From the NCBI GenBank assembly GCA_015233115.1, contig JADFYJ010000002.1, positions 111,216-175,215 on the forward strand: a DNA stretch of 64,000 bases. The letters run 5' to 3'. The translations under genes were made by a program, and so were the position numbers. Under the pieces are notes generated by a model. That model saw nothing but the letters and a program-made list of their open reading frames with translations, ran no database searches and was not told the origin of the DNA. Shown piece after piece: positions 9,100 through 38,583 of this stretch. The stretch is from Candidatus Omnitrophota bacterium. GTDB taxonomy: Bacteria; Omnitrophota; Gorgyraeia; Zapsychrales; Zapsychraceae. Numbering within the stretch: the stretch's first letter is position 1; each line of letters opens with the position of its first letter.

Positions 9100-12000
9100 A
9101 TTTTCTAATTCCAATAAAAGATTATTAACTGGTGTTACGTTAATTATAACAGGTGTAAGCCCGTTAATACCATCTTTCATAAACATCTGTATTTGAGATG
9201 TATCATATTTTATTTCCGTTATATTGCCGGCACGACGGACATTCAGCTCATTCATATCAATACCTCCGACAGAAGAAGTTACCATCGCCTCATCAGAAAA
9301 AAATTCCGCCTCAATATCTTGATCTATTTTATCTTCTATAGTCAGTTGCATATCCGAAATAGCTTCAATTAACTCCGTGATTCTTTTTACCATATAATAT
9401 TTCACATTGGAAAAATTACCATCCTTGAGTTCCTCGCTATATATTTTTTCCAGTTCCATAAAAATATTTTTAAATGGCAATTGCCTAAATAAACTATTTT
9501 CCCCTCCCATTGTTAAAGCATAACCCAAGTATGTCCTTTGTCTGGCAACATCATCCACAGAAGGAACCGTGTAAACTTCAGTTTTATACTCATTACCCAA
9601 CGCAAGAGCCAAGCTGGCAACTTTAAATGAACTACCTAAATCTCCGCTTATTAACAAAGGGACTTGATATTTTCTTGTAATCTGAACGAGGATCCAAAAA
9701 ACCTCCACAACCTCCGGCCGGATCTGACTATAATACTCTCCATATTTAGGATCTGAACGATCAATATGAAACATGGATTTGATCAGATCAGAACTTCCAA
9801 TATCAATAAAATTTGATCTTTGCACAATATGTTCAAATTGAGATAAGGCGGTTATATCTTCAAAATAATAACCAATTTGAATTTGTTTTAACAATGCATT
9901 CAACCGGTTCTCTTCATTATCAATTTCACGCAAATTCAAAGCTCTTTTCTGAATCTGATGCTCTTTCACATACGCAGACATCTGTTCTTCAATTACGGCT
10001 GTTTGCGATTGTTTTAACATTTCATCGATCTTGTCCAAAGAAACCTTTTCATCGTTTCTTACATTAGGAAATGAAATTCCAAGCTTACCATTATTGACTT
10101 TCAAATACGCGCGGTTCAAACAGCGCAGCTGGCGAAGCCCAAATTCGTAAAATGGCATGTTGCCTTTTTTATCTTTATAAAAATAAAAAGCTATACCAGG
10201 ATAATTATTCAAAATATCCTGCAAAACAGCATCCGCATCATCGCCGCGTGTTCCTATATAATCACTTAAAATTTTTGGTATTTTATCTTTTTGAACATCA
10301 TACAATCGAGGTGTCCACAAGAATGAAACACCTTTTAAATCATTCTGAAACATATTGGCGCTCAAAATCTCCGTAAATATCGCTGTCATTATTTTTTCAT
10401 TTTCTTCTATATCTGGATATCGTTCAATATATTCTTTAAATATGACTTCAATTCGGCTTAATCCGACCCCTGTCCCGCCTTCCCGCAATGCTTTACCTTC
10501 AAGAATTTCACTCTTAGTTTCATGAACATCGACAGGAGAAGTAAATAAATAATGTCCATCCACATTCAAAGGGTTCTTGGTTTTAATCTGATTAAACTTT
10601 CTTTTTATCCCATGCCTGTGCATTTCTTGCAAGCCTTCATACATCTCTTGCCAATTAGGTTTTATAACAATTCTTGGCTGTCCAGTGCCGCGCCATTTAC
10701 CATACAAAATTACTTTATCGCCTTTTTTAATGTTATAAGTTTTTCCGCCATAATTTTCTACTCCAGTTATTGCTACCCCTCCTTGCGTTTTTATATCTTT
10801 AGGTGCATGCGCGGATGGTGTCCCCCGGTTCCAAATCAACCCGACAATGTTGGGATATTTTTCTTTAAGCTGAGCCAAGCCATTATACGTCACTTCCTTG
10901 ACAGATGGGTCAACCACAATCACAACAGGCTTATCCGTAATTTTTTTACTTGATGCGCTAGATTCTTTATATGTAAAAATACTTAATTCAAAAATTAAAT
11001 CATCAAAATTTTTATGAGACTCTCCTTTAAAAATATTAATTCGTTCAACGTCTTCTAAACTAAAATTTTCTTCCAAAGGCATGTTAGCATTAATCGCAGC
11101 TAAAAATGAAGCAATAGCCTCTTCAATAGTCAAAGCTTGTTTTGAAATTTTTTCTTTTATAAAACGCGCGAATAAATCTCTAAGATATATAAAATCTTCA
11201 TTTTCATCTGCAAATTTTTTTAAAAACCCTAATTTCTCCGCATCAGGCGTCTTAAAATATTCGATAAACTTTGAGCCAATACTTTCTCCATTTTTTTTCT
11301 GGCTTCTCAGCCGATTCAATAAAAATTTATTCCAAGCGTTGTGCAATGCTTCTTCAAAACGATTTTTTTGCGCCTCAATCAAAACCTCCGCGCGTTCCGA
11401 TGTTGTTCCGGGAGAAAAAACATAATGTTGACTGTGAATCCGGTTCTCAATAAATGGCAAACTCGCCATCTGTTCCTCAAGGTTATCAATAGACGACCTT
11501 AGAAAAGGTTTATTAATAGCCTTGAGCTGACTTAAATTGGTTTGAATATGCCGACGATACCGTTTCAAAAATTCATGCGCTGAAAAAGGCGCCATAGCAG
11601 GTCGCACTCCCGTTGGTTTTTCTCCCTCCATCTCTTTTAACAGTTTGACCACAACATGATCGTACATAAACCAAGTTCTTTGCAACAACGCACCTTTTTG
11701 TTCTTCATCAATTGATTTATCTAGCATTATTAAATCTTCGTTGGACAAACGAAACCGGACCACATTTTCCGCGGTGGGATTTAAATCCAAATTTTGTTTC
11801 GCTTTTAAATAATCAGAGATCAATTTCGAATAACGATCCATTTTCGTTCCATAAGCATTGTTTAATACCCGCGCTGCAGCAGCCCGCAGATATTGAAATC
11901 TTTCTTCTTTTGCTTCTTTAATACCAATATCCCTATGAGCTAATAAATCTTCCACTAAGCGGCTATAGAAAATCTTTAAAATCCGAAAAGTGACTTTTTT

Positions 12001-21206: not shown

Positions 21207-24200
21207 CTATGTCTGATTCCTAAAATTTTTGACATAATCCAAAAAATCAGCCGGGGAAACGGGTTTGCTGAAATAAAAGCCTTGCACAAAATCACAGCCG
21301 TATTCTTGGAGCATGCCGGCTTGTTCTTTGGTTTCTACGCCTTCTGATGTTACTTTAAGGTTTAAGCTTTTGCTCAGGGAGATAATCCCTTTGATCAATG
21401 CGTTCGTATTCGTATTCCCGGGCATTTCCTTGATAAAACTGCGGTCAATTTTTACCATATCGACCGGAAATTTTTGCAGATAATTTAATGAGGAATAACC
21501 TGTCCCAAAATCATCAATGGCAAAATGTACGCCCATGCCAGATATTTTTTGAATGCACTCCATAATATGCTCGCCGCAATCCATTAATAGATGTTCTGTA
21601 ATCTCCAGCTCTAATTTATCAGGCGAAAGCTGCGCGCGCTCTAACGCGCTTTTGACTGCCAAAGATAAATCACCATGCCGAAATTGACGAACAGAAATAT
21701 TAACCGCTACTTTTAATGATAAACCTAACTGGTCATTCCAATATTTAGCCTGACTGCACGCTTCCCGTAAAACCCATTCACCGATCGGTACAATTAACCC
21801 GTTTTCTTCACATAAAGCAATAAATTTATCCGGCATGACCAATCCTAACACGCGATTTTGCCATCGTATTAATGCTTCAAATCCAATAATTTTTCCCGTC
21901 TGTAAACTCAGTAAAGGCTGATAATGAAGAAAAAATTCTTTATTTTCCAGCGCGTGTCTTAGATGCGATTCTAATTCCATACGTTCAGACATTTTTTCAT
22001 TCATAGCTGGCGTAAAATAATAGCTCGTATTGCGTGAATTTTCTTTCGCTTTAAACATGGCGGCTTCAGCATTTTTAAATAAAATTTGCGCGTCCCTGCC
22101 ATCGGAAGGCGCAATAGTAATACCAATGCTGGCGGAAGTAAACAGCTCCTTCCCCTCAATAACAAAAGCCATAGACAACATCACCAAAATTTTTTTTGCA
22201 ACCACATCAGAATGCGTGGTAGACTCCAAATCCGATAAGATAATAAGGAATTCATCTCCAGCCATTCTAGCGACAGTATCGCTTTCCCGTACCGTCTCTT
22301 TTAGACGCTGTGAAACATGTTGTAATAAATGATCCCCATAGGTATGTCCCAGCGTATCATTAATTTCCTTAAACCGATCCAAACCAACCAACAGTACTGC
22401 CACACTTTTGTTCTCCCTCTGGGCCCGTGCAACTGCCTGGGTCAAACGATCAAGGGCTAAGACCCGATTAGGCAAATTTGTCAATCCATCATAATTCGCC
22501 TGATATTCCAATCGATTTTCATACTCTTTCCTCAACGTTATATCTTCTTCAATAGCGACAAAATGAGTGATTAAATCTTTGGCATTTTTGATGGGTGATA
22601 TGGAAACATACGCCCAATATACTTCTCCATTTTTACGCCGATTACACAACTCCCCGCTCCAATTATGGCCCAAAAGAATGGTATTCCAGAGATCTTGATA
22701 GTCGGTCTGGGACGTGTAACCTGATTGTAAAAAACGCGGAGATTTACCAATAACTTCATTGGACGTATAACCAGTTATGTCAGTAAATTGGCGATTCACA
22801 TATTCAATATGGCCGCTCAGATCCGTGATAATCACTGTGGCGGGATTTTGTTCCACAACCTGGTTGAGTTTAATGCTTAAATCTTTAACCTTTTGCTGTT
22901 CGGTAATATCAATGCCTACGCCAATTATAAAATCGACATCCCCTTCCCCATTTAAAATTGTTGAACCTCTCCACTCTACTAGAATTTCCTGGCCCCCTTT
23001 TGTCAAAACATGACTCATGCCAGAAAGCTGCCTTTTGGTTGAAATCAAATCACCAAACCGCGCGCGCAATAAATCGCGTTCATGTTCAGGAACCAGGTCA
23101 TTCACATAATGAAGGCTTGAAGCTTCCTCCTTTTTATATCCTAACGCGGATAACATGGCATTGTTCATCAACAAGACTTTATGATTCAAATCAACAGCCA
23201 CAAAAAAGACCGGAGAATTATCAAGAATAGAACTGGTAAAATTCTGTTCTTTGAGTAAGGCTTCTTCCGCTTTTTTTCTTTTGGTGATATCCATGCCGAT
23301 TGATAAAACACCGGTCAATTTATTATCCGAGTCATAAATCGGTTTATTCGTCCAGTTGACCCAAACTCTTTCCCCATTCTTCCGCACATTTTCGTTTTCA
23401 TGATTCACGAATTTTTCTGGCGCAGACAGCAATTCATCCACAAAATCTTTTAAATTCCTGCCGATTGAATCGTGTACTGGAATAATTTTATTAACAGGAT
23501 TCTCTCCTATCAATTCTTCCGAACTATAACCAAAAAATTTCAAAGCAAATTCATTGGCAAAAGTAATCCGGCCATGAACATCCGTTTTAAGAATAATGCT
23601 GTTGGCGTTTTCTACCAATTCCCGGTATTTTTTTTCACTCTCTAATAAAGAAAATTCGACTCGCTTAGTTTCAGTCTTATCATCATATACAGCAACAATC
23701 TCTCCAGTTGACAATTTAAAAGCATAGTTCTCAACCCACAAGGATATACGGTTATCTTTATATTCTGTTGTACCTAAATGCTCAGTATTGCCGCTCATAT
23801 TCACTTGCTGCAATAAGTTAATAAGACCCATATGTTTCGCAGAAGGAAACACTTCGGAAAGTTTTTTACCAATGACATCTTCACGAATCATGGAAGGAAT
23901 CGCACAGCCCGCATTATTAATATCCACAAAAATAAAATCATGACCATCTTCAGTCGGACGATAAACAGCCACACCTTCTTTCATCGTGTTAAATAAGTTG
24001 CGGAATCGCTGTTCAGTAAAACTTAATTCCTGTTCCCACTTTTTTCGCGCGTTGATATCGGAAACAACCGCGAATCCGCCTTTCCAATTCCCTTTTTCAT
24101 CAAAAATAAGTTGAGGCGAAATCAACCCAAAAAATATTGATCTATCTTTACGGTATAATTCAAGCTCATACGACGTACTCGCCTGATGACGGATCACACT

Positions 24201-25127
24201 CAAATGTTTCATGAACAACTCAAATCCCTGAGGCGTCAAAAAATCAAAAATCGGTTTACCCATAATCTCATCCGTTGTGAATCCCAGAAAATCACAAAAT
24301 TTAGGATTAACATACTGGATTCGGCGGTTAGCATCAATCACACAAATCCCATCATTCATATTCTCAACCAATGAACGGTAACGTTGTTCATTAGCCGTTA
24401 ATTTTTCTTCAAATTCAATCCTTTTTAATTCTTGAGAAGTAAACTGCCAAATCAAATATAATGACAGTAAAGCAATAATCCCCAATATACGCATAAAGAT
24501 CCAGGTCAAATCTTTCAAATAAATATTAGTCTCTGTATTAATGTCATTGGCATAAAACCCTACCCCGATTATCCATCCCCAAGGTTCAAATTTTTTAATA
24601 TACGCGATCTTGGGTATAACTTTATTAGGATGATCCTGCCATTGCCAAAGATATTTCACATAACCTTCGCCATGTTTATTCGCCACATCCACTATTTCCT
24701 TAATAAAATACTTCCCCGCTGGGTCAGTATAATTAAGAAGATTCGACCCTTCCAAATCAGGACGATAAGGATGTAAAAGGACAACGCCTTTATCATTCAC
24801 AATCCAAAAATAATCTTTATGCCCCTCTCCGTACCTGATCAATTTAATCTGCCGCAATGCTTTTTTTTGGGCATCTTCAAGCGAAATCTGCCCGTGAGCG
24901 ACTTGATCCTGAAATTCCCGTAACAAATCTGTAGAAATATAGGATACTTCTTTAATAAGCAATTTTTTTGATTCCAATATGCTGGCTTTAAAAGCTGGCA
25001 GGCTCAGATAAAAAACCGCAAAAAATGAGAGAAAAAATGTTAAGAAAACGGGAAGGATGTTACGAACAAGTATCTGCAACGAAATTTTTCTAAAATGATT
25101 ATTTTTTCGCATAATATATGATACCAT
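21207..25127 (-). CDS. membrane sensor: periplasmic Cache domain - multiple PAS - GGDEF (AGDEF variant) - EAL; c-di-GMP turnover protein
   Basis: 1306 aa; two TM segments bracketing a Cache-like region; at least four PAS/PAC repeats; RMAGDEFLIIL (GGDEF motif with A for first G); EAL domain with FEALIRW, ELEITE, DDFGTGYSS motifs. Confidence 0.85.
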   Translation of the reverse strand: MVSYIMRKNNHFRKISLQILVRNILPVFLTFFLSFFAVFYLSLPAFKASILESKKLLIKEVSYISTDLLREFQDQVAHGQISLEDAQKKALRQIKLIRYGEGHKDYFWIVNDKGVVLLHPYRPDLEGSNLLNYTDPAGKYFIKEIVDVANKHGEGYVKYLWQWQDHPNKVIPKIAYIKKFEPWGWIIGVGFYANDINTETNIYLKDLTWIFMRILGIIALLSLYLIWQFTSQELKRIEFEEKLTANEQRYRSLVENMNDGICVIDANRRIQYVNPKFCDFLGFTTDEIMGKPIFDFLTPQGFELFMKHLSVIRHQASTSYELELYRKDRSIFFGLISPQLIFDEKGNWKGGFAVVSDINARKKWEQELSFTEQRFRNLFNTMKEGVAVYRPTEDGHDFIFVDINNAGCAIPSMIREDVIGKKLSEVFPSAKHMGLINLLQQVNMSGNTEHLGTTEYKDNRISLWVENYAFKLSTGEIVAVYDDKTETKRVEFSLLESEKKYRELVENANSIILKTDVHGRITFANEFALKFFGYSSEELIGENPVNKIIPVHDSIGRNLKDFVDELLSAPEKFVNHENENVRKNGERVWVNWTNKPIYDSDNKLTGVLSIGMDITKRKKAEEALLKEQNFTSSILDNSPVFFVAVDLNHKVLLMNNAMLSALGYKKEEASSLHYVNDLVPEHERDLLRARFGDLISTKRQLSGMSHVLTKGGQEILVEWRGSTILNGEGDVDFIIGVGIDITEQQKVKDLSIKLNQVVEQNPATVIITDLSGHIEYVNRQFTDITGYTSNEVIGKSPRFLQSGYTSQTDYQDLWNTILLGHNWSGELCNRRKNGEVYWAYVSISPIKNAKDLITHFVAIEEDITLRKEYENRLEYQANYDGLTNLPNRVLALDRLTQAVARAQRENKSVAVLLVGLDRFKEINDTLGHTYGDHLLQHVSQRLKETVRESDTVARMAGDEFLIILSDLESTTHSDVVAKKILVMLSMAFVIEGKELFTSASIGITIAPSDGRDAQILFKNAEAAMFKAKENSRNTSYYFTPAMNEKMSERMELESHLRHALENKEFFLHYQPLLSLQTGKIIGFEALIRWQNRVLGLVMPDKFIALCEENGLIVPIGEWVLREACSQAKYWNDQLGLSLKVAVNISVRQFRHGDLSLAVKSALERAQLSPDKLELEITEHLLMDCGEHIMECIQKISGMGVHFAIDDFGTGYSSLNYLQKFPVDMVKIDRSFIKEMPGNTNTNALIKGIISLSKSLNLKVTSEGVETKEQAGMLQEYGCDFVQGFYFSKPVSPADFLDYVKNFRNQT

Positions 25128-33359: not shown

Positions 33360-33576
33360 AGATAACCTATATTGTTTCTCATTTTACTTCACTATTTCCT
33401 AAATTCAAGGGGAATATCAAAAACAGGGCCAAGTAAACGGTTACTGGGAAAATTGTTTAAACCTGCGGCATAAAACAAATGATTTATCGACGATAACACT
33501 CTTGAAAACTAGGTTGGCATTTCACTATTTCATCATGCTATACTCTAAGTGGGTCAAATGTTCTTTATAGATGTTA

Positions 33577-33706
33577 AAGGTAAACTACTCGAAAGAGTGG
33601 GGCCCGTGAACCATGTAAGGTTCACGGTCCTGAACCCAACGTGGTTCAGGAACAAAGCCGTGAAGCTAAAGTAATTTATTACTAAGCTTGTCTGGTTGCC
33701 GATAGG
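33577..33706 (+). ncRNA. candidate c-di-GMP-II-like riboswitch aptamer (with two inserted hairpins)
   Basis: GGTAAAC-CUACUC-GAAA-GAGUGG-G hairpin (GAAA tetraloop, 6-bp stem) then GAACAAAGCCG, a hairpin GAAGCU..AAGCUU, and 3-prime GGUUGCCGAUAGG; this parallels the recalled c-di-GMP-II aptamer GGGCAAAC-CAUUC-GAAA-GAGUGG-GACGCAAAGCC...GGGGUUACCGAUGG. Confidence 0.4.
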
Positions 33707-33730
33707 AATCGTTAAATCCATTTCACTTCA

Positions 33731-33758
33731 GCCCTCTCTCTTTTATGAGGGTTTTTTT
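33731..33758 (+). terminator. putative intrinsic terminator / expression platform of the riboswitch candidate
   Basis: GCCCTCTCTCTTTTATGAGGGTTTTTTT: short GC stem followed by 7 T, 30 nt before the small ORF start codon. Confidence 0.4.
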
Positions 33759-33787
33759 ATTGGCCCTAAAAAGGCAAGGAGCTGAAG

Positions 33788-34039
33788 ATGAAAAAAATAC
33801 TGTTTATTTTTTTAATGGTTATAGGCGCGTCATATGCCTGGGCAGAAACACAAAGTTTCAATATATCCTTAACTATTCCAGCTATTATCGGCGTCAATGT
33901 ACCAATGCCCACTTATTCACCCACAGCTGACACGCTTAAACAAAACACTGAAAACAACAACGCCAGCCAGCAAATATCAACAGAATCCATTTTCAAAGAC
34001 GGGCAACAAACCATCATCAAAACAGTTATGGTAAAATAA
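33788..34039 (+). CDS. small secreted protein (83 aa), unknown function
   Basis: AAGGAG RBS 7 nt upstream of ATG; N-terminal signal peptide MKKILFIFLMVIGASYAWA; convergent with fimbria-like operon. Confidence 0.5.
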   Translation: MKKILFIFLMVIGASYAWAETQSFNISLTIPAIIGVNVPMPTYSPTADTLKQNTENNNASQQISTESIFKDGQQTIIKTVMVK

Positions 34040-34040
34040 T

Positions 34041-34078
34041 CACCGCGTCGGTGGGCCATTGGACCTCCGAGGCGGTGG
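34041..34078. terminator. bidirectional intrinsic terminator between convergent genes
   Basis: CACCGCGTCGG-loop-CCGAGGCGGTGG hairpin with U-rich tracts on both strands. Confidence 0.45.
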
Positions 34079-34087
34079 TCCCTCGGT

Positions 34088-37051
34088 TTATTTTCCTTTT
34101 AACGGCACATAAAATACATACGTTGAACCTTCTTCGATTGTTAATGACTTCTGAAGTTTGATCTTCGGCAAATAATCCAGCGGAATTGAATTTATATCAA
34201 CGCTCAAGCGGTGATTACCCGGCAATACATTTTGGAATGTGTAGGTTCCTTCCATATCCGAATAAACTGTCGTTTTACCGTCTAAGAATATCTTCACTTG
34301 ACCAATAGTTTTTTCACCTGTATCAGGTTTGCCGTTATTATTCTCATCCACAAATACCATCCCGTAAATGCTCGTGTTGGTAGAGGTGCCAAAACTCAGT
34401 AATTGGGTTTTATATGCGGCCAAATTAACGGTCTTTGTATTAGGAGTTGATAACACATACCCCGGTGGCAAAGAACCGACATCAATCGAAACAGTCACGA
34501 GTTTCGCTCTGATCTTTCCAAAATAATGTCCATTCTTATCAGTCTTGACTTGTTTGCGGCCGATCTTAATTTTGACATTGGGCAAACCAGGTTCATTATA
34601 TTCGCGGCTGCCATTTGAATTAAGGTCTTTAAACACATACCCTTCAATCCGCCCCACCGCTGTCCACGCGAATGGAGTTTCCAGAGAAGTTTTCACGCCG
34701 CCCCGCACATCCAATTCAGTATACATATGGCCGCCCGGAATCGAAGGCCACACTTTGCGTGTGCGGCCATCTAAATAAAGTTGAAAATCTTCCGATACTG
34801 AATAAGTTGAAGTAATTCCACCGTTAAAACTATCTTCCCCGGCTAAAAAACTGTTGATAGCTGCCGCGTTTTGCTCTCTCCGATAAGACACATCTAAAGC
34901 ATTGTTTAAGTGATCGCCGATCTGATTATTGTAAGATAACCCCGTCGTTAAAACGCCGGGCATAACAAATTTGCCTGTAGAAAAATTATAAATCCAGGAA
35001 TACTGATATGTGGTGTAAGAGGTTAAATCTTTTATCAACGGGACACTCATTCCCGCCGTTGTTGAATAACGGTCATAATCGGATTCATCAGAAAAACTAT
35101 ACCGGCTTTTTTGATACATTCCCTGAATATACGCGTTCATTTTTTGATTCCCCCAAATCGGAAGATATTTCGAATACGTTGAGGAATATTGAAAATTCGT
35201 GCGAGGGGAAAGCTGTTGCGGCGTAGTCGTAAAATAAATAGCCTGATTGATTGTACCATCGGTCGTAAACGGTACCACCAGCGTGGAATTAAAATCATAA
35301 TTCAGTCCATTAGGATTTTCTTCATTCGGTAAAAGCCGATCCTGAAAAGTGTCTAACGAAGCTGTCCAATTCGCATCTGTATAAGGAGTCCAATCCAATG
35401 TTAATAGCCCGCCTACCTCCCCCTGGCCTGACGGCGCACCAGTAATCGTTTTGAAATCCGGTTGAATATTCCGGTAACTGACCCCTGTTTTTAAACCATC
35501 CACTTCATAAACACTTTTTACAGTGTGGGCCGTACGGCTTTGGTCATACGCCACTTCTGCTTCATTTAAAACATTTTTAAACGTCCTAGCCTGCCCTTGC
35601 AATGAAAAAACTTTTTCTTTTAGGTTTTCATCCCGGTCCAGTCCATAGCCACGGGCATAATTAAAGGCAAGCTTGTTATCCCGTTCTGGAAATAACTCCA
35701 CTCTAGTCCCTTCAATAAACGCATCGCGTGGGTGTGTTGAGGCCTGGCCAGAGGATAACAAACCATAACTGTTTTGTTCCCGTCCCCAAAAACTGGTTAA
35801 TCCAATAGTTTTATGCAGAATTTCTCCCTTACCGGTCAACCCACGATAATTCTCTCCGGTCACAGTCAGTGGAGAGAAGGTGGTCATAGCATCGTAGCCC
35901 CGCAACTCGAGCTTTTCAAACGGATAAATTCGGGCATCAGTCAACCCGACGGTATAATACGTCGGCGGGGTCTTATCCGCGAATTTTTCCATGGTCAAAC
36001 TGCTGTCAAATTTTCCCACCGGTACTTCCCCGACCACATTAACATTATAAATTATACCTAAATTGAGTTTACGTAAATTTGAATACGACGGACCGCTATA
36101 AATAGAACTCCAATCCACAGAACTGCCTACCCGGAACGGTTTAGCAATTTGAAAAATTTGTTCCCGCTGTAACGCCATACTATTCCGGTCAAGGGGCACG
36201 ATCACGTTCACATCGAAACTCCACCGCCCTTTATTATCCCAAACATACACGATGGTCGTCCCCAAACTCACAGCCTTAACTAAAATCTGATCCCGGTCAA
36301 TCCGTTCAATTTCTAAAGAACCAGGTGAGACGACTAAAAATTTATCTATATTTTTTCCTTCTATTAAAATTGCGGTTCGAAAACTCAGGCGTAATGGCGC
36401 GTTCGGCTGATGTTTCCAAGCTTCATCGTTGAGTTTTAAAGTTGAAGAAGGTTTGACCTTCGGAGCTGGAAGTTCTTTAGCTTGTCGACCTTCGTTTAAT
36501 CCAACAGATTGAGATGGCACATCCAAAATAGGCTGAGTATTGGTTGTTTGAGCCGGAAAATTTTCTAAAGAAACAGCCGTTTGCTCTCCCTCGGCTTCAT
36601 TCAATGACTGGTTAATTAAATCCAGCCGGTTAAATGGTTTCGTCTTTTGTTCAACCGTTTGCAAGGCCTGTTGCACTTTTTGTTCGCGGGATATTTTATT
36701 TTTGATCGGAGCATGCGGAACGATCAGATAATCTAACGAAGGCGGAGCATCAGATGACTCTGCTTTATCAGACGAAATAACGACCACTTTATGATCCTGC
36801 AAACGTTTGATGAGATTGATATATTCTTTTGGTTCTGTCGTTGATGGCTCGACTAATTGTGCCTCAGAAAAATAGCGGATCGCGGAATTGTAATCTTTGC
36901 GGCCAAAAGCACTTTTACCTTTTTGAAGGCAATAAGAATACGCCATGGAATATTCGGTTGAATATCCATTATCAACAAAAGAAAAAATTAATAATATTAA
37001 GATTAAATAGAAACGGAATTTTCCCAGCATGCTGGAATTGTAACATCCCAA
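34088..37051 (-). CDS. 987-aa outer-membrane-type protein: signal peptide, secretin-N-like (pilus formation N-terminal) domain, large beta-rich region, two C-terminal CnaB/SdrD-B-type domains; candidate assembly platform/usher analogue
   Basis: Signal peptide; segment LVVSPGSLEIERIDRDQILVKAVSLGTTIVYVWDNKGRWSFDVNV matches T2SS/T3SS pilus-formation N domain pattern; Y/G/S/T/N-rich amphipathic stretch 290-790; GYVFKDLNSNGSREYNEPGLPNVKIKI and GMVFVDENNNGKPDTGEKTIGQVKIFLDGKTTVYSDMEGTYTF are CnaB/SdrD-B-like. Confidence 0.5.
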   Translation of the reverse strand: MGCYNSSMLGKFRFYLILILLIFSFVDNGYSTEYSMAYSYCLQKGKSAFGRKDYNSAIRYFSEAQLVEPSTTEPKEYINLIKRLQDHKVVVISSDKAESSDAPPSLDYLIVPHAPIKNKISREQKVQQALQTVEQKTKPFNRLDLINQSLNEAEGEQTAVSLENFPAQTTNTQPILDVPSQSVGLNEGRQAKELPAPKVKPSSTLKLNDEAWKHQPNAPLRLSFRTAILIEGKNIDKFLVVSPGSLEIERIDRDQILVKAVSLGTTIVYVWDNKGRWSFDVNVIVPLDRNSMALQREQIFQIAKPFRVGSSVDWSSIYSGPSYSNLRKLNLGIIYNVNVVGEVPVGKFDSSLTMEKFADKTPPTYYTVGLTDARIYPFEKLELRGYDAMTTFSPLTVTGENYRGLTGKGEILHKTIGLTSFWGREQNSYGLLSSGQASTHPRDAFIEGTRVELFPERDNKLAFNYARGYGLDRDENLKEKVFSLQGQARTFKNVLNEAEVAYDQSRTAHTVKSVYEVDGLKTGVSYRNIQPDFKTITGAPSGQGEVGGLLTLDWTPYTDANWTASLDTFQDRLLPNEENPNGLNYDFNSTLVVPFTTDGTINQAIYFTTTPQQLSPRTNFQYSSTYSKYLPIWGNQKMNAYIQGMYQKSRYSFSDESDYDRYSTTAGMSVPLIKDLTSYTTYQYSWIYNFSTGKFVMPGVLTTGLSYNNQIGDHLNNALDVSYRREQNAAAINSFLAGEDSFNGGITSTYSVSEDFQLYLDGRTRKVWPSIPGGHMYTELDVRGGVKTSLETPFAWTAVGRIEGYVFKDLNSNGSREYNEPGLPNVKIKIGRKQVKTDKNGHYFGKIRAKLVTVSIDVGSLPPGYVLSTPNTKTVNLAAYKTQLLSFGTSTNTSIYGMVFVDENNNGKPDTGEKTIGQVKIFLDGKTTVYSDMEGTYTFQNVLPGNHRLSVDINSIPLDYLPKIKLQKSLTIEEGSTYVFYVPLKGK

Positions 37052-37069
37052 TGGAGGGCATAAAAGGAA

Positions 37070-37864
37070 TTAGTCAGAAATTTTAGTAATCTGATAATTA
37101 CCGGAAGCATCCTTTGAAAACGTGATTTCTTTGACGACGGAATCACCCTCTTGTAAATCTAAGGTCAATACTAATGTCTGAATGCCGCTTGATGCTTTTA
37201 GTGGAATTGTCACATCCGTATTTTTTCCCGGAGGAAGATAAATATTTTCCAATTCTCCCCGGTCACTCACCATCCCGTCATTCGTCATAACATAATAGAT
37301 AGCATGCGCGACTAAGATCACATTGCCTTTATTTGCTATTTTTGCTTTGATCGCGGATCCGGAAACAGCCACATCCGAGATGACCGCTTTCTTATCTTTA
37401 TCTGTCGGTTCGATAAAAAACAAACTTCCGACCCGCGTGACAATATTAACGCCTTTCCCTTCAATCACTGCGGCTTGCGGCCGATTTTCAAAAAACAATA
37501 CCCCGTAATGCCCTTCATGAATAGCCGCAGGAACTTTAACCGAATAAGAAATTTTCTGATTACTGAGAGGGGGCAATTTAAAACTTTCCGGAGAAAAACT
37601 CACCCAATCCGCGGCTGACGCCAGCCCTAAACCTTTGGCTAAAAATTCTTTATTACCATCATAGGGGGAAACATAATTAAAATCCTGCCAATACACTTTG
37701 ATATCCAATGGTTTATCAGACGTGTTATGCACGGTGATTGAACCGCTCACCGTGTTGCCCGGTTCCGCGTTAATATTGATTTTCCCTTCTTCCAAAAAGA
37801 TCTGCGCGAATGCGCTTGATACGAGGACAAACACCAAGATGATCGACAGTATAATTTTTTTCAT
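37070..37864 (-). CDS. periplasmic two-Ig-domain protein, possible fimbrial chaperone-like
   Basis: Signal peptide MKKIILSIILVFVLVSSAFA; ~245 aa mature, beta-strand-rich with ININAEPGNTVSGSITVHNTSDKPLDIKVYW pattern reminiscent of PapD-like N-domain; gene 18 nt upstream of the 987-aa gene. Confidence 0.35.
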   Translation of the reverse strand: MKKIILSIILVFVLVSSAFAQIFLEEGKININAEPGNTVSGSITVHNTSDKPLDIKVYWQDFNYVSPYDGNKEFLAKGLGLASAADWVSFSPESFKLPPLSNQKISYSVKVPAAIHEGHYGVLFFENRPQAAVIEGKGVNIVTRVGSLFFIEPTDKDKKAVISDVAVSGSAIKAKIANKGNVILVAHAIYYVMTNDGMVSDRGELENIYLPPGKNTDVTIPLKASSGIQTLVLTLDLQEGDSVVKEITFSKDASGNYQITKISD

Positions 37865-37956
37865 AGCTACCCCCATTGGTATTAAGCGGTTCTGCCAGTC
37901 TTAAATTTAAGATTAAACAGAACCGCCCAATATTTTTATCACTACAACGTATTTAA

Positions 37957-38583
37957 TTAATTCGTTGTTGCTGAAACCGTCAATGTACCGCTATAATCAC
38001 CAGTCACATCTGCTGCTGTTGTAAAAGTCAGATCTGAATCTGGAGTTGATCCATCCGCCTTACCACGCCAAATACCTAAATAAATACGGAACCATCCTGG
38101 TGATAAAGTGGCTTTAGGAATACTAGGCGGGATATTCCTAAGTGCCTTTGTGGCAAGGTTCGTTTCCTTAGTATTTCCCGGTTGGGTTGTATCATATACA
38201 GCTTTTTGTAAAGTAGCCAAAATCCTGTATCCCAAACCCTTTGTCGCTGCTCCAGGAAGAGCTCCTTCTTTATAGCTCAAAGTAACCGTAACCGGCCTAC
38301 CAGCTGTATTTGATGCTTCAATCACATAAGATGTATTACTATAAAAAACTTTGTTGACATCATCAAACTTAAGAATACCAAAATCTAGTTTCGGGCCGAT
38401 ATCTGTGGTCCACACATAGTCTGCTCCACCCGACGCGTTAGCTGTTCCCTGATGTGACACGAGCAGAATATCACCTGCTGATGTAGGAACATTCGCGGAA
38501 ACCGTGTAGTCATTCGCTTCAGCGATGCTGAAGACAAATGCTGTCGCGGCCAGCGCCATAGTTAATAAAATTAGTTTTTTCAT
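37957..38583 (-). CDS. secreted ~185-aa subunit-like protein, paralog of 40105-40764
   Basis: Signal peptide; shares KGLGY(R/K) and C-terminal GTLT(V/I)S(A/T)TTN with paralog. Confidence 0.5.
   Translation of the reverse strand: MKKLILLTMALAATAFVFSIAEANDYTVSANVPTSAGDILLVSHQGTANASGGADYVWTTDIGPKLDFGILKFDDVNKVFYSNTSYVIEASNTAGRPVTVTLSYKEGALPGAATKGLGYRILATLQKAVYDTTQPGNTKETNLATKALRNIPPSIPKATLSPGWFRIYLGIWRGKADGSTPDSDLTFTTAADVTGDYSGTLTVSATTN

Follow-up and report, generated by a model that had tools for sequence, protein, structure and literature searches.

The 64,000-nt window analysed here is part of contig JADFYJ010000002.1 of a Candidatus Omnitrophota bacterium (assembly GCA_015233115.1), and the element in question is the leader of HQL26_01905, a plus-strand gene that occupies positions 33788-34039 in the list of open reading frames (ORFs) and encodes a small secreted protein of 83 aa with a signal-peptide-like N-terminus. 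When all of the window was compared with Rfam (cmscan), a sole match exceeded its gathering score, namely RF01051, the class I riboswitch for cyclic di-GMP (c-di-GMP), at 33569-33703 on the plus strand. The match reaches 43.7 bits (gathering score 35) over model positions 1-87 and has E = 2.9e-5, computed for all 64 kb. This segment comprises the whole aptamer together with an insertion, and cmscan treats 61 nt of the first hairpin as inserted relative to the model. Compared with shuffled sequence, the fold of the leader has a z-score of -5.3. Judged by these data, the leader is a class I c-di-GMP riboswitch (GEMM-I), not one of class II. An earlier note, made from the letters alone, had proposed that a c-di-GMP riboswitch containing an inserted double hairpin here precedes a terminator and the gene of a small secreted peptide. 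That architecture is borne out by a significant covariance-model match to RF01051 and by conservation of the aptamer in orthologous leaders, and the elements listed in the note (GGUAAAC, the GAAA stem, two hairpins, GAAGCU...AAGCUU, and the terminator stem with U7) all lie where it placed them.

Examination of the cmscan alignment allowed us to assign the core residues in the numbering of the Vibrio cholerae aptamer Vc2. The GGUAAAC core (33579-33585) begins with G33579, G33580 and U33581, which correspond to G20, G21 and U22. The first arm contains a 2-bp stem (G33580-C33653 and U33581-A33652), an internal loop with strands AAA and GGC, and the 6-bp hairpin P2, also named P1b (CUACUC-GAAA-GAGUGG, 33585-33600, tetraloop at 33591-33594), for which the predicted stability is -6.5 kcal/mol and five of six pairs covary in the variant family described below. 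For GEMM RNAs, the reported first arm has 2- and 6-bp stems, a 3-nt internal loop and a GNRA tetraloop cap (PMC1950547). The junction GGC (33601-33603) aligns to GAC of the consensus, so that C33603 is the equivalent of C44. It is followed, after the insertion, by ACAAAGCC (33652-33659; the slightly longer string GAACAAAGCC is located at 33650-33659), which contains A45, C46, A47-A49 and the start of P3. The linker between the two arms is therefore AAA (A33654-A33656), a defining feature of GEMM that is "virtually always AAA" (PMC1950547). The second arm, P3 (P2 in the older naming; 33656-33697), was assigned from the cmscan alignment and the covariation of helix 5; it carries a receptor-like CUAA...UAA motif and the GAAGCU...AAGCUU hairpin at 33662-33689. 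The equivalent of G83 is G33690, in a column left free by the search pattern and occupied by G in 32 of 33 sequences, and the 3' core GCCGAU (33698-33703, inside GGUUGCCGAUAGG at 33694-33706) provides C33699 as the equivalent of C92.

Thus, by the consensus alignment, the three pocket positions G20, A47 and C92 are occupied in the window by G33579, A33654 and C33699. A47 stacks between the two ligand bases. G20 reads one ligand guanine and C92 pairs with the other, while a change of G20 to A marks variants of the cyclic GMP-AMP (cGAMP) type (PMC6140456). The C44-G83 pair and the contact between GAAA and its receptor join both arms, and a G83C mutation abolishes binding (PMC11705072). The residues for these putative tertiary contacts are all present in the window (GAAA at 33591-33594, CUAA...UAA in P3, C33603 and G33690). 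Vc2 and the RF01051 consensus share with the window the core sequence and helices, the GAAA tetraloop, the receptor-like motif, the AAA linker, the equivalents of G20, A47, C92, C44 and G83, and a site in the 5' untranslated region with a terminator; P2 is of the same length in Vc2. They differ from it in the second pair of the 2-bp stem, where U22-A45 (U33581-A33652) replaces C22-G45, a position that covaries across the variant set (CG in 28 sequences, UA in four).

Another difference is in the internal loop of the first arm, a plain 3-nt loop in canonical GEMM RNAs (PMC1950547), where the window has a 48-nt expansion (33604-33651) consisting of two hairpins. In the minimum free energy (MFE) fold, hairpin A (33604-33627; loop AUGUAA; -14.9 kcal/mol) and hairpin B (33628-33651; loop CAACGU; -13.6 kcal/mol) have 9 bp each, and B adjoins both A and position 45 without a linker. 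Since a canonical P2 is followed by GGC and then by linker-less hairpins up to A45, the insertion site is placed between C44 and position 45. The expansion turns the small internal loop into a multi-helix junction. A repeated or mobile element was considered and rejected, as the paired UGAACC...GGUUCA hairpins are unique to this site in the window (0.05 expected) and the relatives keep the structure and not the sequence. The 3' strand of hairpin A, AGGUUCACGG (33618-33627), is also complementary to the 5' strand of P3, CCGUGAAGCU (33658-33667); on inspection of the relatives' sequences this was not conserved, and it was taken as chance.

The same architecture was found elsewhere by two pattern searches. 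One genome per GTDB species was scanned for a canonical core with 30-60 extra nt after P2, resulting in 97 pattern matches; pairing of P2 was chance-like in 94 of them (mode 2/5) and complete (5/5) in exactly three, two Candidatus Omnitrophota metagenome-assembled genomes (MAGs) and one Planctomycetota MAG. In each of these the fold runs from P2 through 3 nt and two successive hairpins to GCAAAGCC. A tighter pattern applied to metagenomes of the Joint Genome Institute (JGI) gave 37 loci, with P2 paired in all and the insertion layout present in 35. Sequences L120 and L133 were left out because they are canonical aptamers whose expansions lie in the P3 loop and whose match arose through a second ACAAAGC, and L104 was left out as atypical. 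The architecture therefore recurs in at least 36 distinct sequences (three species genomes and 33 distinct metagenome sequences), in which the inserted hairpins vary in length and loop sequence.

Both inserted helices are supported by covariation. A junction-anchored test, which does not rely on an aligner, found the six outermost pairs of A to be canonical in 90.7% of cases as opposed to 57.5% when the 3' partners were swapped between sequences, and those of B in 90.2% as opposed to 52.5%, with 3-6 pair types per position. Two adjacent stems of at least 5 bp were present in 71% of the real insertions and in 0.4% of shuffled ones under the same boundary optimisation. We also built a five-helix covariance model, R1, realigned its 33 full-length matches and counted pairs; in this alignment, which is fitted to the model and includes five R1 seeds, compensatory changes occur at 9/9 pairs of helix A (95.5% of cells paired) and at 9/9 pairs of helix B (91.7%). 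The whole structure is 95.5% paired compared with 31-46% when the register is slid, and its covariation score was reached by none of 500 shuffles. A first R1 alignment (A5) was discarded because it contained reverse-strand partial matches to palindromic hairpins. With R1 the window aptamer, itself one of the seed sequences, scores 136.8 bits. Alignment of the variants with MAFFT followed by RNAalifold recovered P2 and P3 only, since the variable-length inserted stems were misaligned. As judged from covariation and occurrence, the expansion constitutes a peripheral domain that is lineage-associated and recurs in Omnitrophota and Planctomycetota.

The link between riboswitch and gene is conserved beyond the window. 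Aptamers lie upstream of homologous small-protein genes at six distinct loci, and all of them are canonical and insertion-free c-di-GMP-I aptamers by RF01051: L135 (two aptamers, 67.8 and 59.6 bits), L138 (68.5 bits), L140 (66.3 bits), L143 (59.9 bits), L145/L147 (65.9 bits) and L149 (80.4 bits). These orthologous leaders resemble that of the window in their downstream gene family, synteny, pyrimidine-tract terminator design and near-identical core, GGUAAACUACUCGAAAGAGU(A/G)GGGC ... (G/A)CAAAGCCGUGAA; unlike the window, they lack the two hairpins and score 60-80 bits, so that the window with its 43.7 bits stands 20-35 bits below them. Where L145 reads GGUAAACUACUCGAAAGAGUAGGGC directly followed by GCAAAGCCGUGAA, the window reads GGUAAACUACUCGAAAGAGUGGGGC, 48 nt, and ACAAAGCCGUGAA, the cores being nearly identical, insertion aside. 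Since the orthologous leaders carry canonical aptamers, riboswitch and gene are linked in a conserved manner, with an optional insertion at a single phosphodiester bond. Leaders L136 and L144 were not judged, their upstream sequence being too short.

Two of these leaders have peculiarities of their own. The L140 aptamer (2535-2621) reads UUAGUAAAC, with A at position 20, a signature of cGAMP-binding or bispecific GEMM-Ib, so one member of the small-protein gene family may respond to cGAMP. In L135, aptamers at 386-473 and 806-895 on one short contig each precede a different small secreted ORF, the first of which (548-763) is unrelated to the 83-aa family.

Downstream of the aptamer in the window lies an intrinsic-terminator-like hairpin, CCCUC/GAGGG extendable to 7 bp and followed by U7 (33730-33758, plus strand; predicted stability -9.6 kcal/mol), which begins 27 nt past the aptamer, overlaps neither it nor P3, and ends 29 nt before the ATG at 33788. 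Orthologues possess stronger terminators of the same design, for instance CCCUCUC-UUUU-GAGAGGG-U6 in L145. The pyrimidine tract GCCCUCUCUCUUUU (33731-33744) has three potential partners: it forms the 5' arm of the terminator, it can act as an anti-Shine-Dalgarno strand, and it is the proposed partner of segment 33591-33603, since this 5' arm complements the GAAA loop together with the 3' strand of P2 and GGC (inverted repeat I4). The duplex of the tract with 33591-33603 has an energy of -15.9 kcal/mol and ranks first among 123 aptamer windows, and the 13-nt P2 3' segment has the same first rank in five orthologous leaders. Overall, the segment composed of GAAA, the P2 3' strand and GRC (13 nt) is the top partner of the terminator 5' arm in six of eight orthologous leaders, with -12.6 to -15.9 kcal/mol in those six and ranks taken among 75-123 aptamer windows. 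The Shine-Dalgarno (SD) sequence AAGGAG, as read from the sequence, is located at 33776-33781, 6 nt before the ATG. It falls within a long alternative hairpin that is part of the MFE fold of the full leader and pairs CUUCAGCCCUC... with the SD region as far as the start codon (33726-33787; inverted repeat I2 with arms 33726-33744 and 33769-33787; -24.1 kcal/mol).

These complementarities suggest a possible molecular mechanism of regulation. Without ligand, segment 33591-33603 (GAAA loop, P2 3' strand and GGC) would pair with 33731-33744, which would block the terminator and leave the SD sequence free. With c-di-GMP bound, P2 would be locked in the docked aptamer, and the freed pyrimidine tract would either form the terminator (33730-33758) or pair with the SD sequence. 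High c-di-GMP would then turn the small secreted protein gene off. The direction is suggested by the antiterminator pairing, which needs P2 open and the aptamer unfolded. When the transcript is folded as far as the U-tract, the terminator (-64.6 kcal/mol) and the enforced antiterminator (-64.0 kcal/mol) are nearly isoenergetic; ligand binding to Vc2 is worth about -9 kcal/mol (PMC11705072), and binding of such strength could decide between the two states. On this folding model the riboswitch is probably an OFF switch. Vc2, too, is reported to be an off-switch (bioRxiv 10.1101/617340). Unlike in Vc2 and RF01051, the platform of the window appears to compete with P2 and not with P1 or P3.

In total, we consider it very probable that the leader contains a GEMM-I aptamer with a canonical pocket and an optional two-hairpin expansion, controlling a monocistronic small secreted protein gene, with the OFF mechanism as the proposed one. 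Several observations weigh against parts of this interpretation. The terminator in the window has a weak stem of 5-7 bp and a loop of 10 nt. P2, a stable local hairpin, folds some 130 nt before transcription reaches the strand proposed to compete with it. Once the leader is complete, the hairpin that sequesters the SD sequence prevails irrespective of the aptamer (-83.1 vs -71.3 kcal/mol), and the complementarity of the terminator 5' arm to the SD region was not above a compositional (purine/pyrimidine) null. In the wider insertion-bearing set the P2 3' strand is the best terminator partner in 6/19 sequences. Three orthologous leaders with enough upstream sequence (L137, L142 and L148) have no aptamer at the gathering score. 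Finally, the invariance of G20, A47, C92 and GAAA in the variant set was imposed by the search patterns and thus carries no information on selection.

An ON switch, in which the ligand prevents termination or frees the SD sequence, is possible but unlikely. [quoted passage not shown] However, the window terminator starts 27 nt past the aptamer, clear of P3, and its 5' arm in six of eight orthologous leaders best complements the P2 3' strand, which can engage in such pairing only with the aptamer unfolded, implying OFF.

A second group of alternatives concerns the inserted hairpins themselves. Within one RNA the stems of A and B tend to be near-identical (UGAACC/GGUUCA twice in the window, CCGCC/GGCGG twice in others), and similar A and B stems are seen in the window, L090, L098, L106, L110, L119, L128 and others. 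Because the stems are alike within a molecule, the 5' strand of A can pair with the 3' strand of B. The mean energy of this cross-pairing is -15.2 kcal/mol within a sequence as opposed to -11.2 kcal/mol between sequences, and none of 2000 permutations gave a value as low. This likeness could be due to the duplication of one hairpin or to selection that favours an alternative fold. That the hairpins constitute a functional module, whose cross-paired fold beside C44 gates or tunes c-di-GMP sensing or answers a second input, is improbable; if true, the variant would be a natural GEMM-I riboswitch with built-in conformational control. A similar idea, that the variant senses another ligand (3',3'-cGAMP or another dinucleotide) or that its hairpins serve as a second input in the form of a protein or RNA site or an alternative fold, is very improbable. 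It draws on the A20 of the orthologue L140, which is a cGAMP-type signature (PMC6140456), and on the above-chance similarity of A and B, which makes the cross-paired fold possible. Against it, the window has G20 and C92, the family shows no conservation of loop sequence in A or B, about half of the variants cannot cross-pair (the window is in the half that can), and canonical orthologues that lack the hairpins regulate genes of the same family. GEMM-Ib, the 3',3'-cGAMP riboswitch, shares the fold and the Rfam clan with the window element, but is defined by A20 (PMC6140456), where the window has G33579 and, among the orthologues, only L140 has A.

The most economical reading of the hairpins is that of a peripheral scaffold stacking at the junction beside the extruded C44. 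An analogy is provided by the five-way junction of the lysine riboswitch (PMC3082890), where extra helices radiate from the core junction without contacting the ligand; by this analogy the expansion may scaffold or tune folding. The lysine riboswitch helices, however, are universal and have defined tertiary contacts, whereas those of the window type are optional, variable in sequence and length, and have no known contact.

Decay of the riboswitch, with an aptamer disabled by the insertion and a gene controlled by the terminator or SD hairpin alone, is highly unlikely. The low Rfam score relative to the orthologues (by 20-35 bits), a terminator degenerate in comparison with that of L145, and the weak P1a pairing, as read from the window sequence, are what decay would predict. 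On the other hand, at least 36 distinct sequences have the same architecture with intact cores and covarying inserted helices, these variants precede typical c-di-GMP target genes and terminators, which would be unexpected for decay, and the window retains every residue of the pocket and of the tertiary contacts. Finally, a c-di-GMP-II riboswitch (RF01786) with an insertion, the class named in the earlier note for the order of its motifs, has a negligible probability, since RF01786 gave no match at E<=10 on either strand of 33450-33850 (401 nt, permissive filters), the match to RF01051 lies above the gathering score, class I scores of 60-80 bits were obtained for the orthologues, and the aptamer given in the note as class II (GGGCAAAC, a GAAA hairpin, GACGCAAAGCC and GGUUACCGA) is the class I consensus as printed by cmscan (GGCAAAcc ... 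ggGACGCAAAgCc ... gGcUgCCgaa).

The product of the regulated gene belongs to a family of small proteins. A word-indexed protein search with the 83-aa sequence returned the query itself only (a Candidatus Omnitrophica MAG); the idea of an orphan was rejected when an exhaustive HMMER search revealed 16 distant relatives of 78-127 aa with end-to-end matches. The family alignment shares the signal peptide, a SFK[IV]SVTIPAIxGxNVP motif and a C-terminal RDNQxIILKTxVxK. All named members are annotated as hypothetical proteins of Omnitrophica/Omnitrophota, and by this sampling the family is restricted to Omnitrophota. Pfam and NCBIfam gave no function for the small protein or for its 208-, 459- and 267-aa neighbours, and the AlphaFold model of the small protein is too uncertain for comparison of folds, with a predicted local distance difference test (pLDDT) score of 69.5 and a predicted template modelling (pTM) score of 0.24.

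The gene forms a monocistronic unit that ends at a terminator-like hairpin (34067-34096 on the plus strand in the terminator scan) and converges on a minus-strand gene for a 987-aa protein with SdrD_B and pilus-N domains by Pfam (34088-37051). This is a conserved syntenic partner: in L138, L139, L140, L142, L143 and L145-147 the small gene likewise converges on a gene for an SdrD_B protein of 917-1027 aa, often with pilus-N domains, and a ~268-aa protein is encoded next after it wherever the contig extends far enough. The order in the window is 83 aa on the plus strand, then 987, 268 and 208 aa on the other strand. The small secreted protein is thus genetically linked to a large surface-type protein cluster. 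Across Omnitrophota, this cluster of ~1000-aa, ~268-aa and ~200-aa proteins (34088-38583, minus strand, in the window) is conserved and always convergent with the small gene; it may represent a surface fibre or adhesin system. A sequence search of the Protein Data Bank with the 987-aa protein found nothing, and the conserved cluster has no NCBIfam matches either.

The large Cache-PAS-GGDEF-EAL protein mentioned in the earlier note is present at 21207-25127 on the minus strand (1306 aa; sCache, four PAS, GGDEF and EAL domains by Pfam). It is likely to supply or consume the c-di-GMP to which the riboswitch would respond.

The insertion-bearing aptamers outside the window precede genes for Flp pilins in L105 and L110 (PF04964, 2.4e-12), an adhesin with a TPS domain in L127 (PF05860, 2e-22), receiver domains in L090 and L106, and a type II secretion protein C-like/PDZ protein in L111, the last with weak Pfam matches below the curated cut-offs. 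Downstream of other variants there are many small or secreted proteins without known function. By their predicted products these are typical c-di-GMP targets, and the GEMM repertoire has been described as "genes for the environment, membranes and motility" (PMC1950547). A hairpin with a U-tract occurs within 170 nt in 19 of 34 insertion-bearing aptamers. Contigs with such aptamers also carry canonical ones.

We found no description of helices inserted at C44/45 in the literature, including the GEMM paper (PMC1950547) and a survey of tandem riboswitches, with incomplete coverage; insertion-bearing sequences may well sit unremarked in the Rfam full alignments. The element is therefore a member of a known riboswitch class and apparently an undescribed structural variant of it that is supported by covariation. 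Out of 20 tested variants the Rfam model detects 13 at 35-59 bits, two of them with wrong extents, and misses seven. As the model loses 20-35 bits and missed 7/20, c-di-GMP regulons in Omnitrophota and Planctomycetota are probably under-annotated. The much-studied c-di-GMP-I aptamer tolerates, and in one bacterial lineage repeatedly keeps, a two-helix expansion right after C44, a residue whose tertiary pair is essential for folding. Since canonical orthologues regulate the same gene, there exist matched natural pairs with and without the expansion, which provide a natural test of the effects of peripheral helices on junction folding, ligand affinity and switching kinetics. The findings also connect an uncharacterised small secreted protein, its conserved large surface-protein partner, Flp pilins and TPS adhesins with c-di-GMP signalling in Omnitrophota, a phylum about which little is known.

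Upstream of the aptamer, a candidate promoter was read from the sequence (TTGGCA, a 19-nt spacer and TATACT; 33514-33544, plus strand); it is absent from the consensus-scan listing because its spacer exceeds 18 nt. An exact 9-nt direct repeat, CATTTCACT, occurs in this putative promoter (33518-33526) and just upstream of the terminator (33719-33727), which may be due to chance. After the terminator U-tracts of several Omnitrophota-like leaders we observed a motif UUUUAUU(UU)GGCCC (window 33752-33766, L098, L105, L110 and L114); in the MFE fold of the window, GGCCCU of this motif pairs with the 3' arm of the terminator.

Expansions at a different place, in the P3 loop, were observed in other c-di-GMP-I aptamers, namely in L090 (676-826), L120 (5911-6065 and 5671-5828) and L133 (59-198 and 390-557). 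The best Rfam model is the "-GGC" variant for L090 (680-823) and the "-UAU" variant for L138, the pocket bases still being the canonical G, A and C. Finally, L112 has a tandem arrangement, with an insertion-bearing aptamer at 11088-11215 and a second aptamer about 100 nt later (11318-11434).

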